Shown here: positions 12,548-35,999 of the stretch, piece after piece | Layout of the letters: the number at the start of each line of letters is the position of its first letter | Position numbering within the stretch: the first letter of the stretch is position 1 | Assembly (NCBI GenBank): GCA_039934055.1 | Contig: JBDTMX010000102.1 | Coordinates: 1 to 40,442 of the forward strand | DNA from: Sphingomicrobium sp. | GTDB lineage: Bacteria > Pseudomonadota > Alphaproteobacteria > Sphingomonadales > Sphingomonadaceae | Length of the DNA: 40,442 nt | Direction: 5' to 3' | The notes under the pieces: generated by a model | What the model was told of the DNA's origin: nothing | The model's input: only the letters and a program-made list of their open reading frames with translations | Databases searched by the model: none | Made by a program: the position numbers and the translations under genes

Positions 12548-12829
12548 TCAGTCGCAGCGGCGGGTTTCTTTATACTCGCCGGCAGCGGACTTTTCCTTGA
12601 CGGTGATGCACTTGCCCTGGCGCACTTCCTCGCGCCAGCTGCCGTCGGCATTGGTCACGCGTTCGGCCTTGGGGACGCGCTTGCCGTCCTTGATCTCGTA
12701 ATTCCAGCTACTGGGCGTCGACTGGCCCGACGGAGCCGATTGCGCGGCGGCTACGGTCGCATAGCCGACGACGGCGGCGGCCACGGCGATTCCGCCGATC
12801 ACGGCTGCGGTCTTCGAAATGCGTTTCAT
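12548..12829 (-). CDS. Small secreted hypothetical protein
   Basis: MKRISK... signal peptide with GGAG upstream. Stop abuts the stop of the convergent lipoprotein gene. Confidence 0.72.
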   Translation of the reverse strand: MKRISKTAAVIGGIAVAAAVVGYATVAAAQSAPSGQSTPSSWNYEIKDGKRVPKAERVTNADGSWREEVRQGKCITVKEKSAAGEYKETRRCD

Positions 12830-13512: not shown

Positions 13513-14808
13513 ATGGGCGACAACGGCCAGACGGAATCGAGCAGGGGCGGGCCGCGTTCGTTTCTGAAAGTGCTTGGCCCCGGCCTGATTACCGGCGCGG
13601 CCGACGACGATCCCAGCGGCATCGGCACCCACAGCCAGATCGGCGCCGAGTTCGGCTATGGCCTCGCCTGGACGTTCGTTCTCAGTTTCCCGCTGATGGT
13701 CGTCATTCAGGAAGTTGCTGCCCTGATCGGACGCGTCACCGGCGCCGGAATCGCGCGCAATCTGAGACGGCATTATCCGCGGATTGTCCTGTGGCTGATG
13801 GTCTCGTTGCTGCTCATCGCCAACATCGTCAATCTGGGCGCCGACCTGAGCGCAATGGGCGCCGCGCTGGCGCTGCTGGCGGGTGGTAACGCCGGGCTCT
13901 ACACCTTGCTGTTCGGAATCGTCTGCATCGGTCTCGAGGTGGGCTTGAGTTACCCGCGCTATGCCGCCGTCCTGAAATGGACCACGCTGTCGCTGTTTAC
14001 CTACGTCGGCGTCGTAATGGTCGCGCACGTGCCGTGGCCACACGCGCTTCGCTCGCTGGCGGTGCCTGAGCTGCAGTGGAATGCCGCTTATGCCACCGCT
14101 TTGGTGGCGATCCTCGGCACGACCATCAGCCCGTACCTGTTCTTCTGGCAAGCGGCGCAGGAAATCGAGGAGCAGCACCGGCACCATGTCAAGCCGCTGT
14201 GCATCACGCCGGGCGACGCCGGCCCGGAGCTCAAGCGCATCCGCATCGATACGCTGACCGGCATGGCGTTCAGCACGATCGTCAGCCTGGCCATTGTGTT
14301 TGCGACCGCGGCGACACTCCACGCCAACGGGGTGCGCGACATTGCGACATCCTCGCAGGCCGCCGAAGCGCTGCGCCCGATCGCCGGGCAATTCGCGTTT
14401 GCAATGTTCGCCATCGGGATCATCGGCACTGGGCTGCTCGCCGTGCCGGTGCTTGCCGGGTCGGCAGCCTATGCGGTGACCGAGATGGCCGGCCTGTCGG
14501 GCAGCCTCGACGCCAAGCCGCTCAGCGCGCGCCTGTTCTACGCGACGATCGCGATCACCACTTTGGCCGGTGCCTCGCTCAATTCGGTCGGGATCGATCC
14601 CGCGCGGGCGCTCTATTGGGCGGCGGTCGTCAACGGCATCCTCGCCGCGCCGCTGATGGTGATGATGATGCTCATCGTCCGCAATCCACGCGCAATGGGG
14701 CGGCTGACAATATCCCGGCGCATGATGATCGTCGGCTGGACCGCGACCATCGTCATGTTCGCCGCGTCCGCGCTGTTTCTCGCATTCGTCGTCAAGTCAT
14801 GGCTTTGA
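13513..14808 (+). CDS. NRAMP/SLC11-related divalent metal transporter
   Basis: LGPGLITGAADDDPSGI (TM1), GTTISPY (TM6) and about 11 TM segments. Confidence 0.9.
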   Translation: MGDNGQTESSRGGPRSFLKVLGPGLITGAADDDPSGIGTHSQIGAEFGYGLAWTFVLSFPLMVVIQEVAALIGRVTGAGIARNLRRHYPRIVLWLMVSLLLIANIVNLGADLSAMGAALALLAGGNAGLYTLLFGIVCIGLEVGLSYPRYAAVLKWTTLSLFTYVGVVMVAHVPWPHALRSLAVPELQWNAAYATALVAILGTTISPYLFFWQAAQEIEEQHRHHVKPLCITPGDAGPELKRIRIDTLTGMAFSTIVSLAIVFATAATLHANGVRDIATSSQAAEALRPIAGQFAFAMFAIGIIGTGLLAVPVLAGSAAYAVTEMAGLSGSLDAKPLSARLFYATIAITTLAGASLNSVGIDPARALYWAAVVNGILAAPLMVMMMLIVRNPRAMGRLTISRRMMIVGWTATIVMFAASALFLAFVVKSWL

Positions 14809-27099: not shown

Positions 27100-28080
27100 C
27101 TAGTTCGACGGCGCCAGCTTGGTGTTGAGGACCCAGCCGACATTGTCGTTCTCGTCCGCAACTTCCCACCACAAACCGTTCTTGTGACCCGTCGGATAGA
27201 CGACCGCGCCAGGCGGCAGGGTGCGGATGACCCTGGCGCCGGCGGCCGCGCTGACGCGCATCGCCACCGGGGCTTGCGCGGTGAAGGTCTTGCCGGGCGA
27301 GGCCTCGGCGGTCCCGGCGGCGCCCGCCGTCACCAGCCCCAAATCCATGACCATCTTCGAATAGGCCTGGATGAACGCCAGCGTGACGATGCGGCCGATG
27401 TCGGTGCTGTCATAGCCGCCGCCGACCAGGCCGGCGGCGCCGCCGAAGAAGCCCAGGCCGCCACCGCCGCCGAAGCTCATGCTGTTCTTGGCGGCATAGC
27501 CGTCCTGCACGGCGATGGTCTCCGTGGTCCGGACATTGGTCAGCGACAGCACGGTGTTGGCTTCCATCTTGCGGGTCTTGATCCCGCCCGCCAGCGCGCC
27601 GAACCGTCCCCCGACCAGGCCGCCGATCCCGGCGCCGACCGCGCTTCCGCCAGAATCACGGTCCGCCGCCTGGATTTCCGCGACCAGCACGTAGTCGGCC
27701 GCCTTGATCTGCCCCTGCCCGACGTTCGAGCGGCGCTGGAGACCGAGGTCACCGCTGATATCGCGTTCGCGCTGGGCTGCGCTCAGGCCCGAGCCGCGAT
27801 CGACCAAATTGAAGCACCCCGAGCGCTGGACCAGCACCTTCAACAGCTTTTGCGGCCCGGCCAGCTGGAACTGGGTCCAGCCCGACGGATCGTCGCCGTC
27901 CATCACCGACACCGTGCCCAGCTTGCGCACGCAATGCGGCACATCGTTCATCGTCGACTGCTGGAGCTGCTGCGCGCTCGACGGACCTGCCAGCCGCGGT
28001 GCCGCCGGCGCTTGCGCCGATGCCAGCAGCGCGGCCGAAGCGGCGAGCGCGCCGCAAACGCGTGTTTTATCGGAAAGCAT
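27100..28080 (-). CDS. CsgG/HfaB-like exported protein with a C-terminal SH3b domain
   Basis: QRSGCFNLVDRG.G....RER, GQIKAADY, Gly-rich segments, and a C-terminal R...VI..L..G......WW.V....GWV pattern. Confidence 0.78.
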   Translation of the reverse strand: MLSDKTRVCGALAASAALLASAQAPAAPRLAGPSSAQQLQQSTMNDVPHCVRKLGTVSVMDGDDPSGWTQFQLAGPQKLLKVLVQRSGCFNLVDRGSGLSAAQRERDISGDLGLQRRSNVGQGQIKAADYVLVAEIQAADRDSGGSAVGAGIGGLVGGRFGALAGGIKTRKMEANTVLSLTNVRTTETIAVQDGYAAKNSMSFGGGGGLGFFGGAAGLVGGGYDSTDIGRIVTLAFIQAYSKMVMDLGLVTAGAAGTAEASPGKTFTAQAPVAMRVSAAAGARVIRTLPPGAVVYPTGHKNGLWWEVADENDNVGWVLNTKLAPSN

Positions 28081-28171: not shown

Positions 28172-28657
28172 CTAGCTTTCCCAGATCTCACCCTCGGGCG
28201 CGCCGCGCTCGAGTTTGTCGGGCAGCGGGTCGCCGTTGGGCGTGAACTCCAGGCTCACCGAGTTGATGCAGTAGCGCTCGCCGGTCGGCGGCGGCCCGTC
28301 GGGAAAAACATGGCCCTGGTGCGCGCCGCAGCGGACGCAGACGATCTCGTCGCGGACCATGCCGTAGCTGGTGTCGCGAATATTGCGGAGATGGTCGTCC
28401 GAGAATGGCGAAGTGAAGCTTGGCCAGCCGGTACCGCTCTCGAACTTCTTGCCGCCATGGAACAGGGGCAGCCCGCACAGCCGGCAAGTGTACAGACCGA
28501 CGCGCTTTTCATCGAGGAAGACGCCGCAGAACGGCGCTTCGGTGCCATGCTCGAGCAGCACATGGCGTTCCTCGTTGCTGAGGTCGGCCTCGAGGCCGCG
28601 CAGCTGCTCCTCGCTCGGCGGGGTCAGGTCGAACCGCAATATTGTCGCCTCAGTCAT
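28172..28657 (-). CDS. msrB: Peptide-methionine (R)-S-oxide reductase
   Basis: GTEAPF, Cxx[33 protein letters not shown]. Confidence 0.97.
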
Positions 28658-28694
28658 GGTTTCTCCGGAAAATCACGTTTGGCGGAAGTGCCGC

Positions 28695-30101
28695 TCAGCG
28701 CCTCACCGACCGGAAGGTCTCGCGGAGATCTTCGGTCAGCAGCTGCGGCTGTTCCCAGGCGGCGAAGTGCGTCCCCTTGTCGTGGCTCTTGTAGAAGACC
28801 AGGTGGGGATAAGCGGCGCGCGCCCAGCTCTCGGGTGCCTGGTAGATCTCGTATTTGAACGCGCTGACGCCGGTCGGCAGCGGCACGCCGCGTGGATCGA
28901 AGAAGCCGCCCTTGCCGTTGCGGCTTTCCCAATACAGTCGCCCCGAAGACACCGCGGTATTGGTCAGCCAGTAGAGCGTGACATTGTCGAGAATGTCATC
29001 CCGCGTCAGGCCTTCGCTCGCCCCGTCGAAAACGCGGGCGATCAGCTCATAGCTCTGGATGTCATGGTCGAGCATCCAGGCGGCGAGGCCGGTCGGCGAA
29101 TCCGCGAGAGCATAAAGCGTCTGCGGCCGGTGGTTCATCTCGATCGCGTAGCCGAGCCCGTTGACATAGAATTCGGTCAACTGGTTCCAGGCGTGCTGCT
29201 CGTCGGGCGCAAGGTTGGGCGGCGGCGGGCCCGCGGGAAGCGCCTTGCTGATCGCTTCTGGAAGCGTCGCCGACATGTTGGTGTGGATCGCCAGCAATCC
29301 CGGCGGCTGCTGCAGTGCCATGACCTCGCTGATCGCATTGCCCCAGTCGCCGCCTTGGGCGACGTAGCGCGTGTAACCAAGCCGTTTCATCAGCACGTCC
29401 CAGGCGCGGCAAATGCGGGGCACATCCCAGCCGACCGCGGTCGGCTTGCCCGAAAAACCGTAGCCCGGGAGTGACGGGATAACGACGTCGAACGCGTCCG
29501 CCGCCGTCCCGCCGTGCGCGGTCGGATCGGTCAGCGGTCCGATGATCTTCAACTGCTCGATGATCGAACCAGGCCAGCCGTGAGTGATGATCATCGGCAG
29601 CGCGTTGGGGTGCTTCGACTTCACCTGGATGAAGTGGATATCCAGCCCATCGATGTTGGTTAGGAAATTGGGGTAGGAATTGATCTGCGCTTCGGCGCGG
29701 CGCCAATCGTGGTGGTTGGCCCAGTAATCGGCGAGCTTTTGCATCGTCGCCAGCCGCACGCCTTGCGTCGTGTCGTTGACGGTTTCGCGATCGGGCCATT
29801 TGGTCGCCTTGATGCGCCGCTTGAGGTCGGCGAGCTCGGCGTCCGACGCATGGTATTTGAACGGCCGGATCGACGTGTCGCCACTCGAATCACCCGTCGC
29901 GGCTGTCCCGATCACCGACGATTCCGCAACCGTCGCTGCCGACCCCGCCGAGTTCGTCGGCGAGAGCGTTTCCGTGCCCGATGCATGGGGTGATGTGCTT
30001 GCCGCGTGAGCGGAGCTCGCGGGGAGAATCGCCGCGATCGTTCCGACCAAGGTGGTGGCGAGAAAATGGCGCCTACCAATCAACGGAAGAATTCCGGACA
30101 T
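28695..30101 (-). CDS. Epoxide hydrolase (EHN plus alpha/beta hydrolase) with a twin-arginine signal peptide
   Basis: AGGAGG RBS before ATG 30101. GRRHFL signal, IRPF, HGWPGS, PSLPGYGFS, QGGDWG, HFAAWEQP. Confidence 0.92.
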   Translation of the reverse strand: MSGILPLIGRRHFLATTLVGTIAAILPASSAHAASTSPHASGTETLSPTNSAGSAATVAESSVIGTAATGDSSGDTSIRPFKYHASDAELADLKRRIKATKWPDRETVNDTTQGVRLATMQKLADYWANHHDWRRAEAQINSYPNFLTNIDGLDIHFIQVKSKHPNALPMIITHGWPGSIIEQLKIIGPLTDPTAHGGTAADAFDVVIPSLPGYGFSGKPTAVGWDVPRICRAWDVLMKRLGYTRYVAQGGDWGNAISEVMALQQPPGLLAIHTNMSATLPEAISKALPAGPPPPNLAPDEQHAWNQLTEFYVNGLGYAIEMNHRPQTLYALADSPTGLAAWMLDHDIQSYELIARVFDGASEGLTRDDILDNVTLYWLTNTAVSSGRLYWESRNGKGGFFDPRGVPLPTGVSAFKYEIYQAPESWARAAYPHLVFYKSHDKGTHFAAWEQPQLLTEDLRETFRSVRR

Positions 30102-30248
30102 GGTCAGCCTCCTGATTTGTGATTGCGGAATGACGCTCACATCACGCGGAAATCGGTCGCGGATAGTCTGGTGCGCAACGACACTGGCGGCCCGGCGGCG
30201 CCTCTGCGCCCGCCCGTGCGAGTCGGTCAAGTGGGCAGTGATTCCACG

Positions 30249-30276
30249 GTCCTTCAGCGGCCGCCAAGCGGGCGTT
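30249..30276. repeat. Possible degenerate third copy of the palindromic site
   Basis: GTCCTTC-AGCGGCCGCCAA-GCGGGC-GTT compared with GTCCGC-N12-GCGGAC-ATT. It overlaps the stop codon of the 30275 gene. Confidence 0.35.
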
Positions 30277-30694
30277 AGCGCTCCGAGGTTTCGTCCGCCG
30301 GGTAACGCGCGTTGACGATGCCCCACACGACGCAGAGGAAGAGTCCGGCCCAGGCCAGCCTGGAGTAAGGCGACTGGAAGCCGGTCAAGGCTATGGTCAA
30401 GACGCAGAAGAAACCGAGCACGTAGGCCCCTGGAGGTGATCCCTTCCCGGCTAGTTCGTAGGTCAGCCAGTCCCTGCTTCGGCTGGACCCCAGTTCCTCA
30501 GCGTTCTTGAACTGGTTGCGCCGTCCGCGGGTGAGCAGCAGCACCAGGGCCAGGCCGCAGACGATCATCGCCAGTCCGTTGGCCAACCCAACCGGCGCCT
30601 CGCTCCACGCACCCACCAGCGCAGCACATAAAGAGAGGACCACGATCGTCGGCGCCCGTTCCGAGAGCCCATCGAGGAATGCCGTTACCCGCAC
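30275..30694 (-). CDS. Hypothetical membrane protein (about 4 TM)
   Basis: Four hydrophobic segments and atypical codon use. Start uncertain (GTG 30694, TTG 30697, or in-frame ATG 30748 inside the palindromic site). Confidence 0.65.
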   Translation of the reverse strand: MRVTAFLDGLSERAPTIVVLSLCAALVGAWSEAPVGLANGLAMIVCGLALVLLLTRGRRNQFKNAEELGSSRSRDWLTYELAGKGSPPGAYVLGFFCVLTIALTGFQSPYSRLAWAGLFLCVVWGIVNARYPADETSER

Positions 30695-30722
30695 CAAATT
30701 GCCTATCGCCCGCGGGCCTGAG

Positions 30723-30751
30723 GTCCGCAATGGGTCGAAAGCGGACATTGG
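30723..30751. repeat. Palindromic site, copy 1 (GTCCGC-N12-GCGGAC)
   Basis: GTCCGCAATGGGTCGAAAGCGGACATTGG, 25/29 identical to 32814-32842. Confidence 0.85.
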
Positions 30752-30798
30752 GCATTTGAAACTTGCCGCCGATCGAGCGGCTCCCCAAGGCCGACGGT

Positions 30799-32808
30799 AT
30801 GACATTCATGATCGCCGTATTGATTCTAGGGGCCGTTGCCTCGCCCCCGCCGGACGAGGACCAGGAGAGGTCAAAGCCGATAGCTCCGGCGCTGGCCATC
30901 GATGCGCCCGGTCAGGACGACGAGCGGGCAAGAGCCGCTGGTCCTGCGCAATCGCAAGCCACCGCCGATGCGGATGAGGAGGAAGAGGGGGTCCGGCCTG
31001 ACGACGCCATCGTCGTCACCGCTCGGCGGCTGGATACCGCGAGGACCCAGACCGATGCGGGGCTGGGAGCGACCGTTTACTCCCTGACCAACGAGACTAT
31101 CGAGAACCGGCCCGGCGGAGAAACGGGAAGCATTTCACAAATCTTGACGCAGGCTCCAGGCGCAACCGTGTCCGTGAAAGGCCTGAACATTCGTGGGTCG
31201 CGCGCCAACCAGGTCCGCATCAACAACGTCATCGTTCCCGAAGCCATTGCCGATCCGGCCGATCATCTCAGCTCCCGGCTGGCGGAAACAACGCGCCTGA
31301 TCACGGGCACTCTTCCCGCGCAGTTTGGCTTTGCCCCGGCGGGGGTGATCAGCGTCACGACCAAGAATGGCCTTTATCAGCACGGCGGCCAGGCCGAGCT
31401 TTTTGCTAGCAGCGACAGAATGCTGGAACCGGCGCTGGAGTGGGCGGGGTCGGCGAATGGGACAAGCCTGTTCGCGTCGGGCAGCCTGGAACGCGACCGC
31501 TCAAACGTTGCCGATGGGGAAGGTGCGGCAGCGCGCGACCGCAGGAACGAGATTGAGGGACTGGCCTTTGCCGATCACGTCGTCGGCGAGAATGACCGCG
31601 TTTCCTTGCTCGTTGGCGGCTCGCGCGAGCGCCACCGGATCGGGCAAACGACGATTGGTGCCGGCACCGAGCGCAGTAGCGATGGTTACGCCGTGGCAAC
31701 CTATCTGCACAGTCAGGGCGGCCTCACCGTCCAGTCGTCGCTGTTTGTCGGCAGCGCATCGGATCAGTCGCTGTTCATTGTCCCCACCCACGAGCGCCAT
31801 CGCTCGTTTGGTATCCAGGTTGATGCGAGCGATGCCGTGAGCACATCGCACACGTTGAGGTTCGGCCTTCTCGCCAGCCGTTCAACGGTCCGCGAGCTGG
31901 ACCTCGCGAGCGAACGGTCGGTCACGGGCCGAACTTCGGCTGCGGTTTATGCTCAGGACGAATGGAAGATCGCGCCCACGCTCACATTCAATCCGGGCGC
32001 GCGAGTGGAATGGCTGCGCGGTGGATCGTCGGGAGCGACAGTCGAGCCTCGCGCCAGCCTGGTATGGGAAAACGGGAGCGGATTGACGGGTCACGTCGGC
32101 TATGCGCGCTACGCGTCAGCGGCTCCTCTGGGCGAGCAGGTTGCTGCAACGAAGCTGCCCGACGAGCGCGACGATTATCTCGATATGGGCATGCAGAAGC
32201 GCGCCGGGCCCTTCACCTTCGGGCTGGACGGCTACTGGCGCTCGGTACGCAACGACATCGCGGAACGCGAAGCCATCGGGTCGGCCGTGCCGGCGGCATT
32301 CGCGTTAAGGCGCGCTCGGATCAAGGGTGTGGAGTTCGCGGCGACATATTCCCACCGAGCCACGACCGCTTGGGCAAACCTGGCATTCGCAAGTGCCAAG
32401 GGAAGGTCGATCATCGGTGGTGAGGCGCTGTTCTCGCCGGACATTCTCTTCGCGTTATCACAGCGCTCGGTGCCGCTGGCAAGCGAACGGCCGGTGACTG
32501 CCTCGGGCGGGTTCACGCGCCGGCTGGGCAAGATCAGCCTATCGGGCGACTTGCTGGTGTCGAGCGGCGCAGTGCGGACATTGAATGCGGCGCGTCCGAA
32601 CGGCGCGCGATACTCGCCTTATGCTGTGGTCGGGCTAGCGGCCGTTTATCACGCAAGGATTGCCGGTCGCTCGGCCGACCTCAGGTTCGACTTCACCAAC
32701 CTCACCAACGCCCGATACTTCACGAGCAATGCAGCGAACCTTGAAGGCGGGTGGACCCGTCGCGAACGCGGGCGCGCGATCACAATCGGCATCGAGCAAG
32801 GGTTCTAG
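30799..32808 (+). CDS. TonB-dependent outer membrane receptor
   Basis: TonB-box-like IVVTARR, plug L.QAPG....IRG, YAQDEWKI, EPRASL, NLTN, and terminal Phe (IEQGF). Start ATG 30799 or 30808. Confidence 0.88.
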   Translation: MTFMIAVLILGAVASPPPDEDQERSKPIAPALAIDAPGQDDERARAAGPAQSQATADADEEEEGVRPDDAIVVTARRLDTARTQTDAGLGATVYSLTNETIENRPGGETGSISQILTQAPGATVSVKGLNIRGSRANQVRINNVIVPEAIADPADHLSSRLAETTRLITGTLPAQFGFAPAGVISVTTKNGLYQHGGQAELFASSDRMLEPALEWAGSANGTSLFASGSLERDRSNVADGEGAAARDRRNEIEGLAFADHVVGENDRVSLLVGGSRERHRIGQTTIGAGTERSSDGYAVATYLHSQGGLTVQSSLFVGSASDQSLFIVPTHERHRSFGIQVDASDAVSTSHTLRFGLLASRSTVRELDLASERSVTGRTSAAVYAQDEWKIAPTLTFNPGARVEWLRGGSSGATVEPRASLVWENGSGLTGHVGYARYASAAPLGEQVAATKLPDERDDYLDMGMQKRAGPFTFGLDGYWRSVRNDIAEREAIGSAVPAAFALRRARIKGVEFAATYSHRATTAWANLAFASAKGRSIIGGEALFSPDILFALSQRSVPLASERPVTASGGFTRRLGKISLSGDLLVSSGAVRTLNAARPNGARYSPYAVVGLAAVYHARIAGRSADLRFDFTNLTNARYFTSNAANLEGGWTRRERGRAITIGIEQGF

Positions 32809-32813
32809 CGAAT

Positions 32814-32842
32814 GACCGCAATGGGTCTAAGGCGGACACTGG
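32814..32842. repeat. Palindromic site, copy 2, same orientation as copy 1
   Basis: GACCGCAATGGGTCTAAGGCGGACACTGG, starting 5 nt after the receptor stop codon. Confidence 0.85.
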
Positions 32843-32863
32843 CGCGATGAATTGAAGCGACGC

Positions 32864-34087
32864 TCAATTCCCCGGGATGTTCCCGTTGAGGATGTCGCCG
32901 AGCCCGAACTTCTTGCGCTTCTTGGGCGGCTGCCCGGGCTGGCCGGGCTGCCCCTGCTGCGCCGCCGCGCCGCCGTAACCGTCCATGCCGCCCATGCCGC
33001 GGATCAGCGAGGCGCTGGTCTTGAAGCGCACCTTGGCGGTCCAGATCGGCGCCTTGGGCTTTTCCGCGAAATCCACTTCGGGGCCGTAGCCGATCATCGT
33101 CAGCATTCCCGCCGGCGATGCGGCGGCGACTTCGGCCGGAAGCACGCACTCGCTGACCGTTGGCGCCAGCACCGCGCCGAGGCCGACCAGCCGGCGCACT
33201 TCGGACGGCGCCAGATAGTCCATGTTGGGGAACATCGCCGCGTTCCGGCCCGAGCTCCACATCACCACGTCGCCACCGCCCGACGACCCGAACATCGCCA
33301 GCGCATAGCCGGTCGCGCCCGGCGCCATCCGCCACACCAGCCGACTCGCGCCCGACGGCAATGCGCCCGCTTCGGCAAGGCCGAGCGCCGGCATGAAATC
33401 CTGCCCCGGAGCCAGCGAGAAGCCGATCGGCGGCGAATAATTGCCCTCGACCTGGTGCGCTCCGACCAGCGAGCCTTGCGCCGGCACCGCGCGCGAATCC
33501 TGCTTGTTCGGCCATTCGCCATAGCCCGGCGCGCTGCGCGGTCCCGGCCGCGACACGGCGTGCGCATAATTGGACATTGCCGCCATCCCCGGCGGGATCT
33601 GGCCCGCCGCGAGCTTGGAGAAATCGATCACCGTCGGCTGGCCCAGTCCGACATGCTCGCCGCAGCCCCAATAGATCAGCATCCGCCCCTGGGGCCGCTG
33701 ATAGCCTTGGGGCATGCTCGTCGGCCGTTCCGGCGGCGGGGCAATCGGCGTCACCAGCGGCAGGCTCGGCCCCATCGCCAGGCCGGGCGGGATCAGATGC
33801 TCCGCGGCCGGAGCCGGCGCTTTCTGTTTCGACGCGAGCCGCAGCTCGAGCGTATGCGCGACCGACGAGCCGCCGCCCGACATCATGCCCATGATCTGGC
33901 CGATGTTGGGCCGCGCGCCCGGGGTCATGCCGGCGCCCAGCCCGCTCTGCGTCGCCGCGTCCATCCAGTAGGTCGCGATCGGCGGCGGCGGCGCATTCGT
34001 CGCTGGCCCCTTCGTCGCAGGCGCTGCCCCATAGGCCGCCGCTCCGCCGAGCATGGTCGTCGCGGCCAAGATGCTGATTCTGTTCAT
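32864..34087 (-). CDS. Secreted Gly/Pro/Ala-rich hypothetical protein (407 aa)
   Basis: ATG 34087 (MNRISILAAT..., signal peptide), host-like codon use, IYWGCGE motif, basic C-terminus PKKRKKFGLGD. Confidence 0.82.
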   Translation of the reverse strand: MNRISILAATTMLGGAAAYGAAPATKGPATNAPPPPIATYWMDAATQSGLGAGMTPGARPNIGQIMGMMSGGGSSVAHTLELRLASKQKAPAPAAEHLIPPGLAMGPSLPLVTPIAPPPERPTSMPQGYQRPQGRMLIYWGCGEHVGLGQPTVIDFSKLAAGQIPPGMAAMSNYAHAVSRPGPRSAPGYGEWPNKQDSRAVPAQGSLVGAHQVEGNYSPPIGFSLAPGQDFMPALGLAEAGALPSGASRLVWRMAPGATGYALAMFGSSGGGDVVMWSSGRNAAMFPNMDYLAPSEVRRLVGLGAVLAPTVSECVLPAEVAAASPAGMLTMIGYGPEVDFAEKPKAPIWTAKVRFKTSASLIRGMGGMDGYGGAAAQQGQPGQPGQPPKKRKKFGLGDILNGNIPGN

Positions 34088-34163
34088 CGCAAACCCCCCG
34101 GGTTGATGTCCTACTATCCGCAATGCTCGCGCCGCCTGCAACCCTCTGCTAGCGCGCCGGCCA

Positions 34164-35999
<1,836 letters not shown>

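Follow-up and report, generated by a model that had tools for sequence, protein, structure and literature searches.

Gene cassettes delimited by putative 30-bp recombination sites in Sphingomicrobium, and a small tyrosine recombinase as their candidate enzyme

Two genes in a Sphingomicrobium sp. contig (JBDTMX010000102.1 of assembly GCA_039934055.1; its 40,442 nucleotides are referred to here as the window) lie between copies of a 30-bp site that recurs across this genome and its genus. The sites delimit cassettes, and we consider it likely that they are double-stranded recombination sites, cut in a 6-bp core by a tyrosine recombinase of ~200 residues that is encoded elsewhere and would act in trans; the cutting by this enzyme, the circular intermediate, the crossover point, and the action in trans we infer from sequence comparisons. 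A bolder proposal, to which we give slightly less than an even chance, is that integrons and pdif modules are joined here by a third natural gene-cassette system. A mobile, catalytic-domain-only tyrosine recombinase would capture, excise, and stack single genes at lox-like sites throughout the chromosome, supplying a large part of the Sphingomicrobium-like accessory genome and filling the niche of the integrons missing from Alphaproteobacteria, and it would also be the missing enzyme for the repeats beside fun(Z) of phage P2.

The genus belongs to a class known for lacking integrons, and its genomes carry as many as roughly a hundred cassette sites each, with a different chemistry and a named candidate enzyme; the question of integron absence can therefore be put to the test with a single small gene and one 30-bp site. 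If the proposal is true, bacteria known for having no integrons have a gene-capture system of their own, and a recombinase can be named for the P2 repeats. The motif also permits mining of a large pool of uncharacterized single-gene cassettes, and the small size of a 200-residue candidate recombinase lacking a core-binding domain would suit genome engineering.

Sites and cassettes in the window and across the genus

The site consensus is AATGTCCGCWWT GGGTSG AAAGCGGACATT, a 12-bp arm, a 6-bp asymmetric core, and a second 12-bp arm. An initial annotation of the window described two direct 25-bp copies (30723-30747 and 32814-32838; 22/25 identical, 2,091 bp apart) bracketing a TonB-dependent receptor gene, the second starting 5 nt after the receptor TAG, and this arrangement is confirmed; its description of 6-bp arms around a 12-bp spacer is replaced by the 12-6-12 unit, and the spacer is therefore 6 bp, the usual size for tyrosine recombinases. 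Searching with a weight matrix that includes the core, we found 49 sites in this genome, and a Markov-simulated genome of the same length, searched at that threshold, gave none; all 33 pairs of neighboring sites are co-oriented. The cassette array is spread over the genome and is not local. Among 102 near-complete genus genomes, 89 have a site and 13 lack any at two mismatches, with motif matches per genus genome ranging from 0 to 124. The core is GGGTGG or GGGTCG in 525 of the 616 unique sites overall, a proportion inflated because the matrix contains the core.

Overall, 339 neighboring pairs are co-oriented versus 36 opposed, with a median spacing of 599 bp, and one open reading frame fills most of the interval in 273 of the 339. 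Cassette genes run both ways (170 antisense, 103 sense), some cassettes carry several genes, and the commonest position for the stop codon is inside the arm end (39/273). This genome also contains tandem site doublets 24-37 bp apart, and many contigs have lone sites. No Pfam match was found for 87 of 138 cargo proteins scanned, and the remainder include GNAT, glyoxalase, SnoaL, immunity, and TIR proteins; PADLOC matched two of 12 other cargo proteins (TIR-domain only) and neither of the window proteins.

Table 1. Sites, cassette genes, and neighboring genes in the window
Feature	Coordinates	Strand	Description
msrB-like and epoxide hydrolase genes	28172..30101	-	Pfam
Site 3, decayed	30247..30276	+	Degenerate in core and left arm; right arm intact, bears TAA stop of membrane gene
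Cassette gene 1, small membrane protein	30275..30694	-	139 aa from an inferred start codon; not confidently assigned to a family
Site 1, 12-6-12	30720..30749	+	Weight matrix, 44 bits
Cassette gene 2, TonB-dependent receptor	30799..32808	+	~669 aa; PF00593, E 2e-18
Site 2, 12-6-12	32811..32840	+	Weight matrix, 40 bits; right border of island, abuts 3' end of backbone gene
Backbone: 407-aa hypothetical gene (-), lepA (+)	32864..35999		Outside cassettes; pair conserved in 12 loci examined in relatives

With ~20 equal scores expected in the window and its right arm ranking 12th of 80,856 positions, the degenerate third copy reported at the end of the membrane gene (Table 1) is not significant alone, but four of 23 homologous membrane-gene loci have a full site at its place and orientation, as an alignment also shows, and contigs of a related strain (runs X1 and X4) have a canonical core at this position. 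The proposed bias toward A/T-ending codons is clear for the receptor (GC3 of 0.735); the membrane gene, at 0.806, shows it marginally, the epoxide hydrolase being at 0.812 and 12 other window genes at 0.82-0.89. The membrane protein, previously credited with four transmembrane segments, gives three peaks in a crude hydropathy scan, and a structure-atlas query with it returned no result. A conserved motif lies upstream of the receptor gene within its cassette, and an Rfam scan of 29500-34500 gave a single match at chance level. The msrB-like and epoxide hydrolase pair is probably an older portion of the same island. The pair is missing at the corresponding position in relatives, and in genome G070 it adjoins sites at another location; the epoxide hydrolase homologue in G050 is a cassette bounded by sites, the upstream one being a full site oriented as site 3.

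Could the sites instead be single-stranded hairpins, attC- or REP-like, serving an integron integrase or an HUH/RAYT enzyme? A 6-bp stem is possible in each site (-3.4 to -6.5 kcal/mol), and the cassettes recall those of integrons in their cargo and in having the stop codon within the arm end. This is nonetheless very unlikely. The two arms of a site do not covary (P 0.83), but a slight excess is seen for the opposite ends of the same cassette (P 0.004). The conserved length of 30-36 bp is far below that of attC, which is ~55 bp or longer; just 15% of sites have the AAC end and 19% the GTT end, and the genes point both ways. No integron integrase scored above cut-off in any of five genomes tested, and in this 63%-complete assembly we found no integron integrase, Y1/RAYT gene, or serine resolvase.

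Homology joints and cassette movement

Cassettes occur in differing genomic contexts. Neither refuting condition set by the initial annotation holds, as the sites lie at boundaries where genes were gained or lost, and the window genes are not syntenic core: homologues of the membrane gene are present in 24 of 270 genus genomes and those of the receptor in 19 of 270, and in these genomes neither adjoins the neighbors that it has here. At 10 of 23 membrane-gene loci there is a site just upstream, and at three there are sites on both sides; co-oriented sites flank the receptor on either side at two loci, L412 and L421, with the L412 cassette sharing 70.7% DNA identity with that of the window. Homologues of both genes lie between the same sites, in the same orientation, beside different neighbors. 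The description of mobile one-gene cassettes served by a recombinase elsewhere is supported by these loci and by the candidate enzyme, with the qualification that some cassettes are multi-gene.

The joints fall at the sites. Homology of the window to G070 begins at base 32811, where the G070 site has different cargo, and the cassette of contig C106, which recurs in G070, G079, and G409, resembles its G070 counterpart from core to next core, including a private degenerate left arm. Sequences beyond the sites show random likeness in 25 pairs of homologous cassettes (0.31 and 0.34, versus 0.29 and 0.28). The left arm of site 1 has an unusual GAGG end in common with the homologous membrane-gene cassette of G088 (L390), and this left arm is therefore part of the cassette to its left. 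Inner arms of homologous cassettes are weakly more alike than outer ones, although the pairs are non-independent and the values are not above those of random pairs. At a purK/M16-peptidase junction there are filled and empty alleles, with sites in three of the 11 loci that have both genes.

Several observations count against the cassette interpretation: sites reaching 10 bits are missing from 14 of 21 receptor-homologue loci and from 12 of 23 membrane-gene loci, and another three receptor relatives lack sites as well. The first receptor relatives scanned (five at 54-61%, and distant ones) also lack flanking sites, and the site-bounded ones came from the full genus search only. This majority of homologues without scoring sites, and the single sites on many contigs, would fit a terminator, operator, or miniature repeat that accumulates in variable regions without recombining. 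Such a reading is largely refuted, and we regard it as scarcely probable: the sites are strictly co-oriented and lie at 5' and 3' ends whatever the gene direction, homology stops at them, arms travel with the cassette, and a recombinase gene is linked to them. Promoter and terminator consensus scans gave nothing falling on the sites.

We propose that the cassette unit comprises a right arm, a gene in either orientation (often with its own promoter region), and a left arm. Two direct sites would recombine to release a circle with one site, of 2,091 bp with the receptor and ~473 bp with the membrane gene; if such a circle recombined with any resident site, the cassette would be added with all sites kept co-oriented, and arrays would therefore grow. 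The recombinase gene occupies the sole inverted module, with both left arms towards it and arrays diverging outward, and its gain and loss would leave orphan arrays such as this locus.

Alternatively, the small recombinase may act on the sites while arrays exchange cassettes chiefly through cointegrates, by double crossover or inversion, rather than as free one-site circles. The inverted recombinase module and the 36 of 375 neighboring pairs that are inverted are in line with this, as are two alternating cores in enterobacterial relatives, the different cargo at the same joint in G070, and the lack of any circle among the contigs of runs X1 and X4. No clean empty allele of this locus, such as the initial annotation had envisaged with one site retained, was seen there either, which counts against the cassette interpretation. 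We think this unlikely, since a single core type and the 339 direct pairs favor simple excision and integration, and the tandem doublets resemble repeated integration products or empty cassettes. A joint in run X1 that skips the receptor was rejected as an empty allele; its short side has 21 letters, and it therefore shows a site beside the backbone gene in another strain. A split-site test using a rare arm variant was significant when pooled, with P ~0.2 within arrays, and was dropped.

A small tyrosine recombinase beside the sites

At least two sites lie within 1.5 kb at all 21 loci encoding a clade-A tyrosine recombinase, at three of nine clade-B loci, and at none of 30 XerC/XerD-type loci; in collection loci chosen by motif alone, a small recombinase adjoins a site in four of 80. 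The upstream site is inverted in 19/19 clade-A rows and the downstream site is direct in 23/23, such that arrays diverge from the gene. Clade-A proteins are 197-207 aa, with R48, K76, H145, R148, and Y180 invariant and H171 nearly so, and the best fold matches of a predicted structure (pLDDT 84) are XerA, XerH, and Cre. By its R-K-H-R-H/W-Y catalytic residues and modeled catalytic fold, the linked enzyme belongs to the tyrosine recombinase superfamily.

The clade-A proteins have no core-binding domain with which to hold a 12-bp arm, their alignment with XerD starting only at XerD residue 130, and this is a point against the interpretation; 'simple' tyrosine recombinase groups have an N-terminal core-binding domain, according to the accessible text of PMC8138268.

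Searches by tblastn and profile did not recover the small recombinase from this assembly (63% complete), nor was it found at full length in 68 of the 89 site-bearing genomes; it would therefore act transiently and in trans. The label 'integrase-free' accordingly suits this locus and this assembly, but elsewhere a clade-A gene lies beside the sites. Co-occurrence of recombinase and site at the genome level (21/89 versus 0/13) is not significant (Fisher P 0.065), and kin are not independent. Two observations run against the interpretation: a Pseudomonas plasmid with a close recombinase homologue has no such site, and in Dyella the module polarity is reversed.

Real recombination sites could also be worked by the housekeeping XerC/XerD or another resident enzyme, leaving the small recombinase as mere cargo or a helper. 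A search of this assembly for simple tyrosine recombinases recovered XerC and XerD alone, the small gene is often missing from site-rich genomes, and a 12-6-12 site with two unlike arms is dif-like. We judge this improbable, as Xer-size tyrosine recombinases are present in 40/40 genomes tested, including the 13 siteless ones, the sites accompany clade-A and not Xer-type loci, and the polarity around the small gene is fixed. In addition, E. coli plasmid NZ_CP021681 has four related sites around a homologue of the small recombinase in an arms-only scan.

We therefore favor the small recombinase as the enzyme. It is present in three of 50,697 phage records and the exact motif in 10 viral contigs, and phage carriage is therefore not prominent for this core type. 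A DNA search of E. coli genomes with the Dyella recombinase module gave no match.

Comparison with known systems

The system is distinct from both integrons and pdif modules, and is probably another recombinase-driven cassette system. Like integrons, it has arrays of mostly single-gene cassettes with co-oriented sites, stop codons often within the site, mostly unknown cargo, and enzyme-less orphan arrays (CALIN). Unlike the attC hairpin, the 30-bp 12-6-12 site lacks covariation, and its arrays flank the recombinase gene on each side and recur elsewhere at many positions in the chromosome. Genes in these arrays have both orientations, whereas those of integron cassettes share one and are read from Pc at attI. 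Of three linked recombinases compared with the IntI model, one scored 23 bits (cut-off 265) and two were unmatched. Not one of 243 alphaproteobacterial genomes had an integron, In0, or CALIN, an absence termed extremely puzzling in the available part of PMC4889954.

The pdif modules of Acinetobacter, acted on by XerC/XerD, similarly have two unlike arms, a 6-bp spacer, and sites bounding gene modules, and are typed by the inside arm; in Acinetobacter, inverted sites enclose alternating C and D modules, with fused direct modules the exception (PMC13141974, sections available). Here, in contrast, direct modules are the rule (339 versus 36) and the inverted module carries a dedicated recombinase. 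The sites have one core type, are chromosomal, and differ in arm sequence from the Acinetobacter ones.

Inverted repeats flanking fun(Z) in P2-like coliphages were reported in 2004 by Nilsson et al., as relayed by PMC8987985, the accessible portion of which names no recombinase and no arrays. In an arms-only scan of P2 (21.5 kb), the top site lies between G and fun(Z) at 23.3 bits, with the next at 7.4; the second fun(Z) flank scores only 5.2 bits. The shared arm family is a match to the P2 sequence itself, the published repeat being known via PMC8987985. P2 fun(Z) differs in having cores TGGCAC and GAGCGA and inverted pairs at one locus, versus direct arrays with GGGTSG here. We found no description of the system in the literature searched, which lay outside subscription journals, bioRxiv supplements, and Nilsson 2004, and a search with the site letters gave an unrelated primer match only; the accessible parts of PMC3091744, PMC6379469, and PMC9122126 hold nothing on mechanism.

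The linked recombinase resembles the FimB/FimE invertases in its small size and catalytic domain alone, with weak model matches (18-34 bits, versus cut-offs of 221-222). FimB and FimE are ~200 residues long and consist of the catalytic domain only; they operate a single promoter switch, whereas here there are dozens of dispersed direct sites and gene movement. Cre/loxP likewise has a single enzyme, two arms, and an asymmetric core that sets direction, and the Cre catalytic domain is a fold match. Cre differs in its N-terminal binding domain, in the 8-bp spacer of its site, and in its role, the resolution of a plasmid prophage; it is not known to build natural cassette arrays. In contrast to REP/RAYT elements, scattered independently of gene gain and loss, the repeats described here are tied to it.

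Sites and cassettes of the window

The two direct repeats that the initial annotation placed around the TonB-dependent receptor gene are 22/25 identical and lie 2,091 bp apart, the second starting 5 nt past the receptor stop, all as it claimed. The 12-bp spacer that it proposed is really a 6-bp asymmetric core plus three arm bases per side, the conserved unit being 30 bp long (12-6-12; consensus AATGTCCGCWWT GGGTSG AAAGCGGACATT) and weakly extended by GCT/AGC. The host is probably a Sphingomicrobium, judging by 82-85% matches to contigs bearing that label. A weight matrix grown from both repeats identified 49 sites on 16 contigs of its assembly (1.5 Mb, 63% complete), where all 33 neighboring pairs are co-oriented; a simulated genome of equal length yielded no site. 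Contigs C106, C56, and C143 carry 14, 9, and 8 sites, respectively, mostly with one small ORF of lower G+C content between them, in either orientation. Doublets and a triplet of sites, 20-37 bp apart with overlapping arms, look like empty cassettes, and the C143 and C56 doublets have the same inner 20 bases. Short false ORFs starting MSAMG or MSTLG arise from sites.

Coordinates of features in the window, the host assembly, and other loci
Feature	Sequence	Coordinates	Strand
CsgG-like gene	Window	27100-28080	
Epoxide hydrolase and msrB-like genes	Window	28172-30101	-
Left-arm likeness at hydrolase start	Window	30091-30105	-
Third site copy	Window	30247-30276	+
Membrane gene	Window	30275-30694	-
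Site 1	Window	30720-30749	+
Motif upstream of receptor	Window	30746-30800	
Receptor gene	Window	30799-32808	+
Site 2	Window	32811-32840	+
407-aa gene	Window	32864-34087	
Backbone (407-aa gene and lepA)	Window	32864-35999	
Site doublets and triplet	Host assembly (G000)	C106:18103-18156; C143:12155-12210, 12680-12735; C56:13437-13510, 14191-14246	
TIR-type cargo	Host assembly (G000)	C106:18127-20200; C56:14217-17406	
Seventeen co-oriented sites	Dyella sp. OK004	L117:6407-15720	
Recombinase homologue	Plasmid NZ_CP129201	L435:5971-6591	

The gene for the membrane protein is a cassette, with homologues in 24/270 genus genomes. Among 23 loci, a co-oriented site lies just upstream in 10, a full site occupies the place of the window's third copy in four, and both are found in three; 12 have neither site at 10 bits, with arm remnants visible in many. 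The third copy, which had been read as a degenerate site, is not significant alone, but its right arm aligns base for base with the full sites of relatives, and a canonical core stands at its position in related-strain contigs (sequencing runs X1 and X4). The odd left end of site 1 also occurs in a cassette of genome G088, indicating that this arm moves together with the gene to its left.

The receptor is likewise a cassette, although less often than the membrane gene. Of the 21 places that its homologues occupy in 19/270 genomes, four show a co-oriented site no more than 15 bp from the stop, and at two of the four, L412 and L421, a second one lies upstream; a further place has only an upstream site, another has opposite-strand sites, another has a weak distant site, and the other 14 have no site. 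The receptor cassette DNA of the window and L412 is 70.7% alike, and receptor GC3 is 0.735 versus 0.82-0.89 in backbone genes. The hydrolase, msrB, and 407-aa genes are absent within 1.5 kb of all receptor- and membrane-gene homologue loci examined. Homologues without sites also keep the motif (CATTG..., TTTGAMACTTG, CCAAG) that precedes the receptor, a putative promoter or operator that belongs to the cassette and directly adjoins the right arm of site 1.

The backbone of relatives has the order purK, M16 peptidase, the 407-aa or CsgG-like gene, and lepA. None of 12 loci with the 407-aa gene has the receptor, membrane gene, hydrolase, or msrB adjacent, and one (genome G070) has a site at the 3′ end of that gene. 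Likeness between the window and G070 starts at base 32811, the first of site 2, and continues for 2.9 kb at 84.7%; the G070 cargo at this joint differs, being a 4.8-kb segment of several genes between direct sites. The nearby purK/M16 junction holds site arrays in 3/11 loci and none in the rest or in the window. Only one of the CsgG-like and 407-aa genes adjoins lepA in the fetched relatives; the window carries both, with the island in between, and at locus L040 both are present and adjacent, the CsgG-like gene in pieces. The epoxide hydrolase gene start resembles a left arm (12.7 bits), probably by chance; neither a core nor a right arm accompanies it.

Distribution and cargo

Matches with two or fewer mismatches occur in 19/24 genus genomes and in 0/16 genomes from other families of the order; among 102 genus genomes of 95% or higher completeness, 89 have them, with 0 to 124 per genome. 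The exact motif was found in at least 123 stretches across all species representatives scanned, and labels among the matches listed include Sphingomicrobium, Sphingomonas, Allosphingosinicella, Croceibacterium, Caulobacterales, Lysobacter, Dyella, and Burkholderiales. Unpublished genomes are counted (G020, G412, G097, G121, and G506), and no claim depends on them alone; G020 enters several tallies, among them the 19/24 count, the pooled sites and their intervals, and, as described below, one of the 21 clade-A loci and one of the 25 homologous pairs. G020 and G412 are among the genomes of the 89/102 count.

Pooling 616 unique sites from the loci fetched by that stage gave 339 co-oriented and 36 opposed neighboring pairs, with a median spacing of 599 bp, and one ORF mostly fills 273 of the 339 co-oriented intervals; that the sites are an inert repeat is barely credible. 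These ORFs run against the site in 170 intervals and with it in 103. The arm end is the commonest stop-codon position (39/273), an excess partly expected because the arm end yields a stop in one frame. We scanned 138 of 227 cassette proteins, of which 51 have a Pfam match and 87 have none. TIR-domain proteins and relatives of 630-665 aa are repeatedly met as cargo in several arrays (in the host and at L119, L129, L132, L220, L352-L354, and L362), with a possible role in defense or signaling.

A small tyrosine recombinase

Among 80 collection loci picked by motif alone, four have a small tyrosine recombinase adjoining a site. Those of the genus fall into two clades, and at least two sites lie within 1.5 kb at 21/21 clade-A loci (from 21 genomes that match over the full length at 65% or more), with any site at 3/9 clade-B loci. 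Among gene copies of clade A, the upstream site is inverted in all 19 that have one and the downstream site is direct in 23/23. This places the gene between two left arms, with the arrays diverging from it and reaching 18 sites in 19.5 kb. Module polarity is reversed in Dyella, where seventeen co-oriented sites lie upstream of the recombinase in Dyella sp. OK004.

Several results count against a role of the small recombinase: it was not found in the host assembly (63% complete), no full-length copy was found in 68 of the 89 genomes with sites, and its genome-level co-occurrence with sites is not significant (P 0.065). Host Xer acting on the sites is an alternative that we consider unlikely, with sites at 0/30 XerC/XerD-type loci.

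Clade-A proteins are 197-207 aa long and keep R48, K76, H145, R148, H171, and Y180; the modeled structure is a predicted catalytic domain resembling XerA, XerH, and Cre, and alignment with XerD begins only at residue 130 of the latter. They fall under every NCBIfam cut-off, and the part consulted of a tyrosine-recombinase classification (PMC8138268) describes no catalytic-domain-only group. The family is present on 343/72,556 plasmid records. Also counting against a role, sites of this family are absent with a Pseudomonas plasmid homologue. On plasmid NZ_CP129201, a recombinase of 67% identity lies after a phosphite-oxidation operon, with no family site nearby.

A GTTC-N7-GTTC-like direct repeat (relaxed pattern), the form of the alphaproteobacterial LexA box, lies 20-50 bp past the recombinase stop in 13/23 clade-A copies (L227-L232, L235, L238, L239, L241, L242, L244, and L214) and in 0/15 of clade B. 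Within the inverted module it precedes small ORFs of various, mutually unrelated types, possibly an SOS-controlled partner or cargo. Clade-B flanks (L247-L255, L211, L213, L216, L218, L219, and L222-L225) carry related but different low-scoring palindromes, including other cores, and these genomes thus probably also contain a sister family of sites.

Crossover, mechanism, and known systems

One C106 cassette was found again between sites in G070, G079, and G409; its likeness to the G070 copy spans upstream core to downstream core, takes in a private degenerate left arm, and goes no further. Across 25 homologous cassette pairs, which are non-independent, likeness in the outer flanks is that expected at random, and inner arms exceed outer ones (0.64 versus 0.55, P 0.01; 0.76 versus 0.69, P 0.03), although inner arms are not above those of random pairs. 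Within arrays, the arms of a single site show no covariation (P 0.83), the opposite ends of a cassette agree slightly more than shuffled ones (9.17 versus 9.01 of 15, P 0.004), and a rare-arm-variant test was not significant. Together, the likeness limits, arm comparisons, and covariation results modestly favor double-stranded sites with cleavage in the core, rather than hairpins of the attC type, and we think hairpin chemistry very unlikely.

We consider it fairly likely that arrays grow by the action of the small recombinase, which would be present intermittently, recombine pairs of direct sites, and integrate circles. Recombination of direct sites would release one-site circles, of 2,091 bp and ~473 bp in the window, and integration at any resident site would preserve orientation and lengthen arrays; loss of the enzyme module would leave arrays whose sites decay. 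Because cassettes carry their own upstream region, gene direction would be free. Cassette exchange without free circles, an alternative route between arrays, seems improbable.

The reading of these genes as cassettes in the initial annotation is supported with the corrections given, and the feature is real; its comparison with integrons holds in that the arrays behave alike, while in IntI, attC, and orientation they are unlike integrons. The passage of PMC4889954 on 243 alphaproteobacterial genomes reports no integron, In0, or CALIN. The arrays have the site layout of pdif modules as described in PMC13141974, but neither the alternation nor the enzyme link of those modules. In the non-subscription literature searched, neither the enzyme-site pair nor such arrays are described. 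This is probably a recombinase-driven cassette system, whose site family was glimpsed in phage P2: inverted repeats flank fun, enabling site-specific recombination, according to a passage in a review citing Nilsson et al. 2004 (PMC8987985). An arms-only scan of 21.5 kb of P2 ranked first a site adjoining fun(Z), and four sites surround a homologous recombinase on an E. coli plasmid, the cores in both cases differing from those of array sites.
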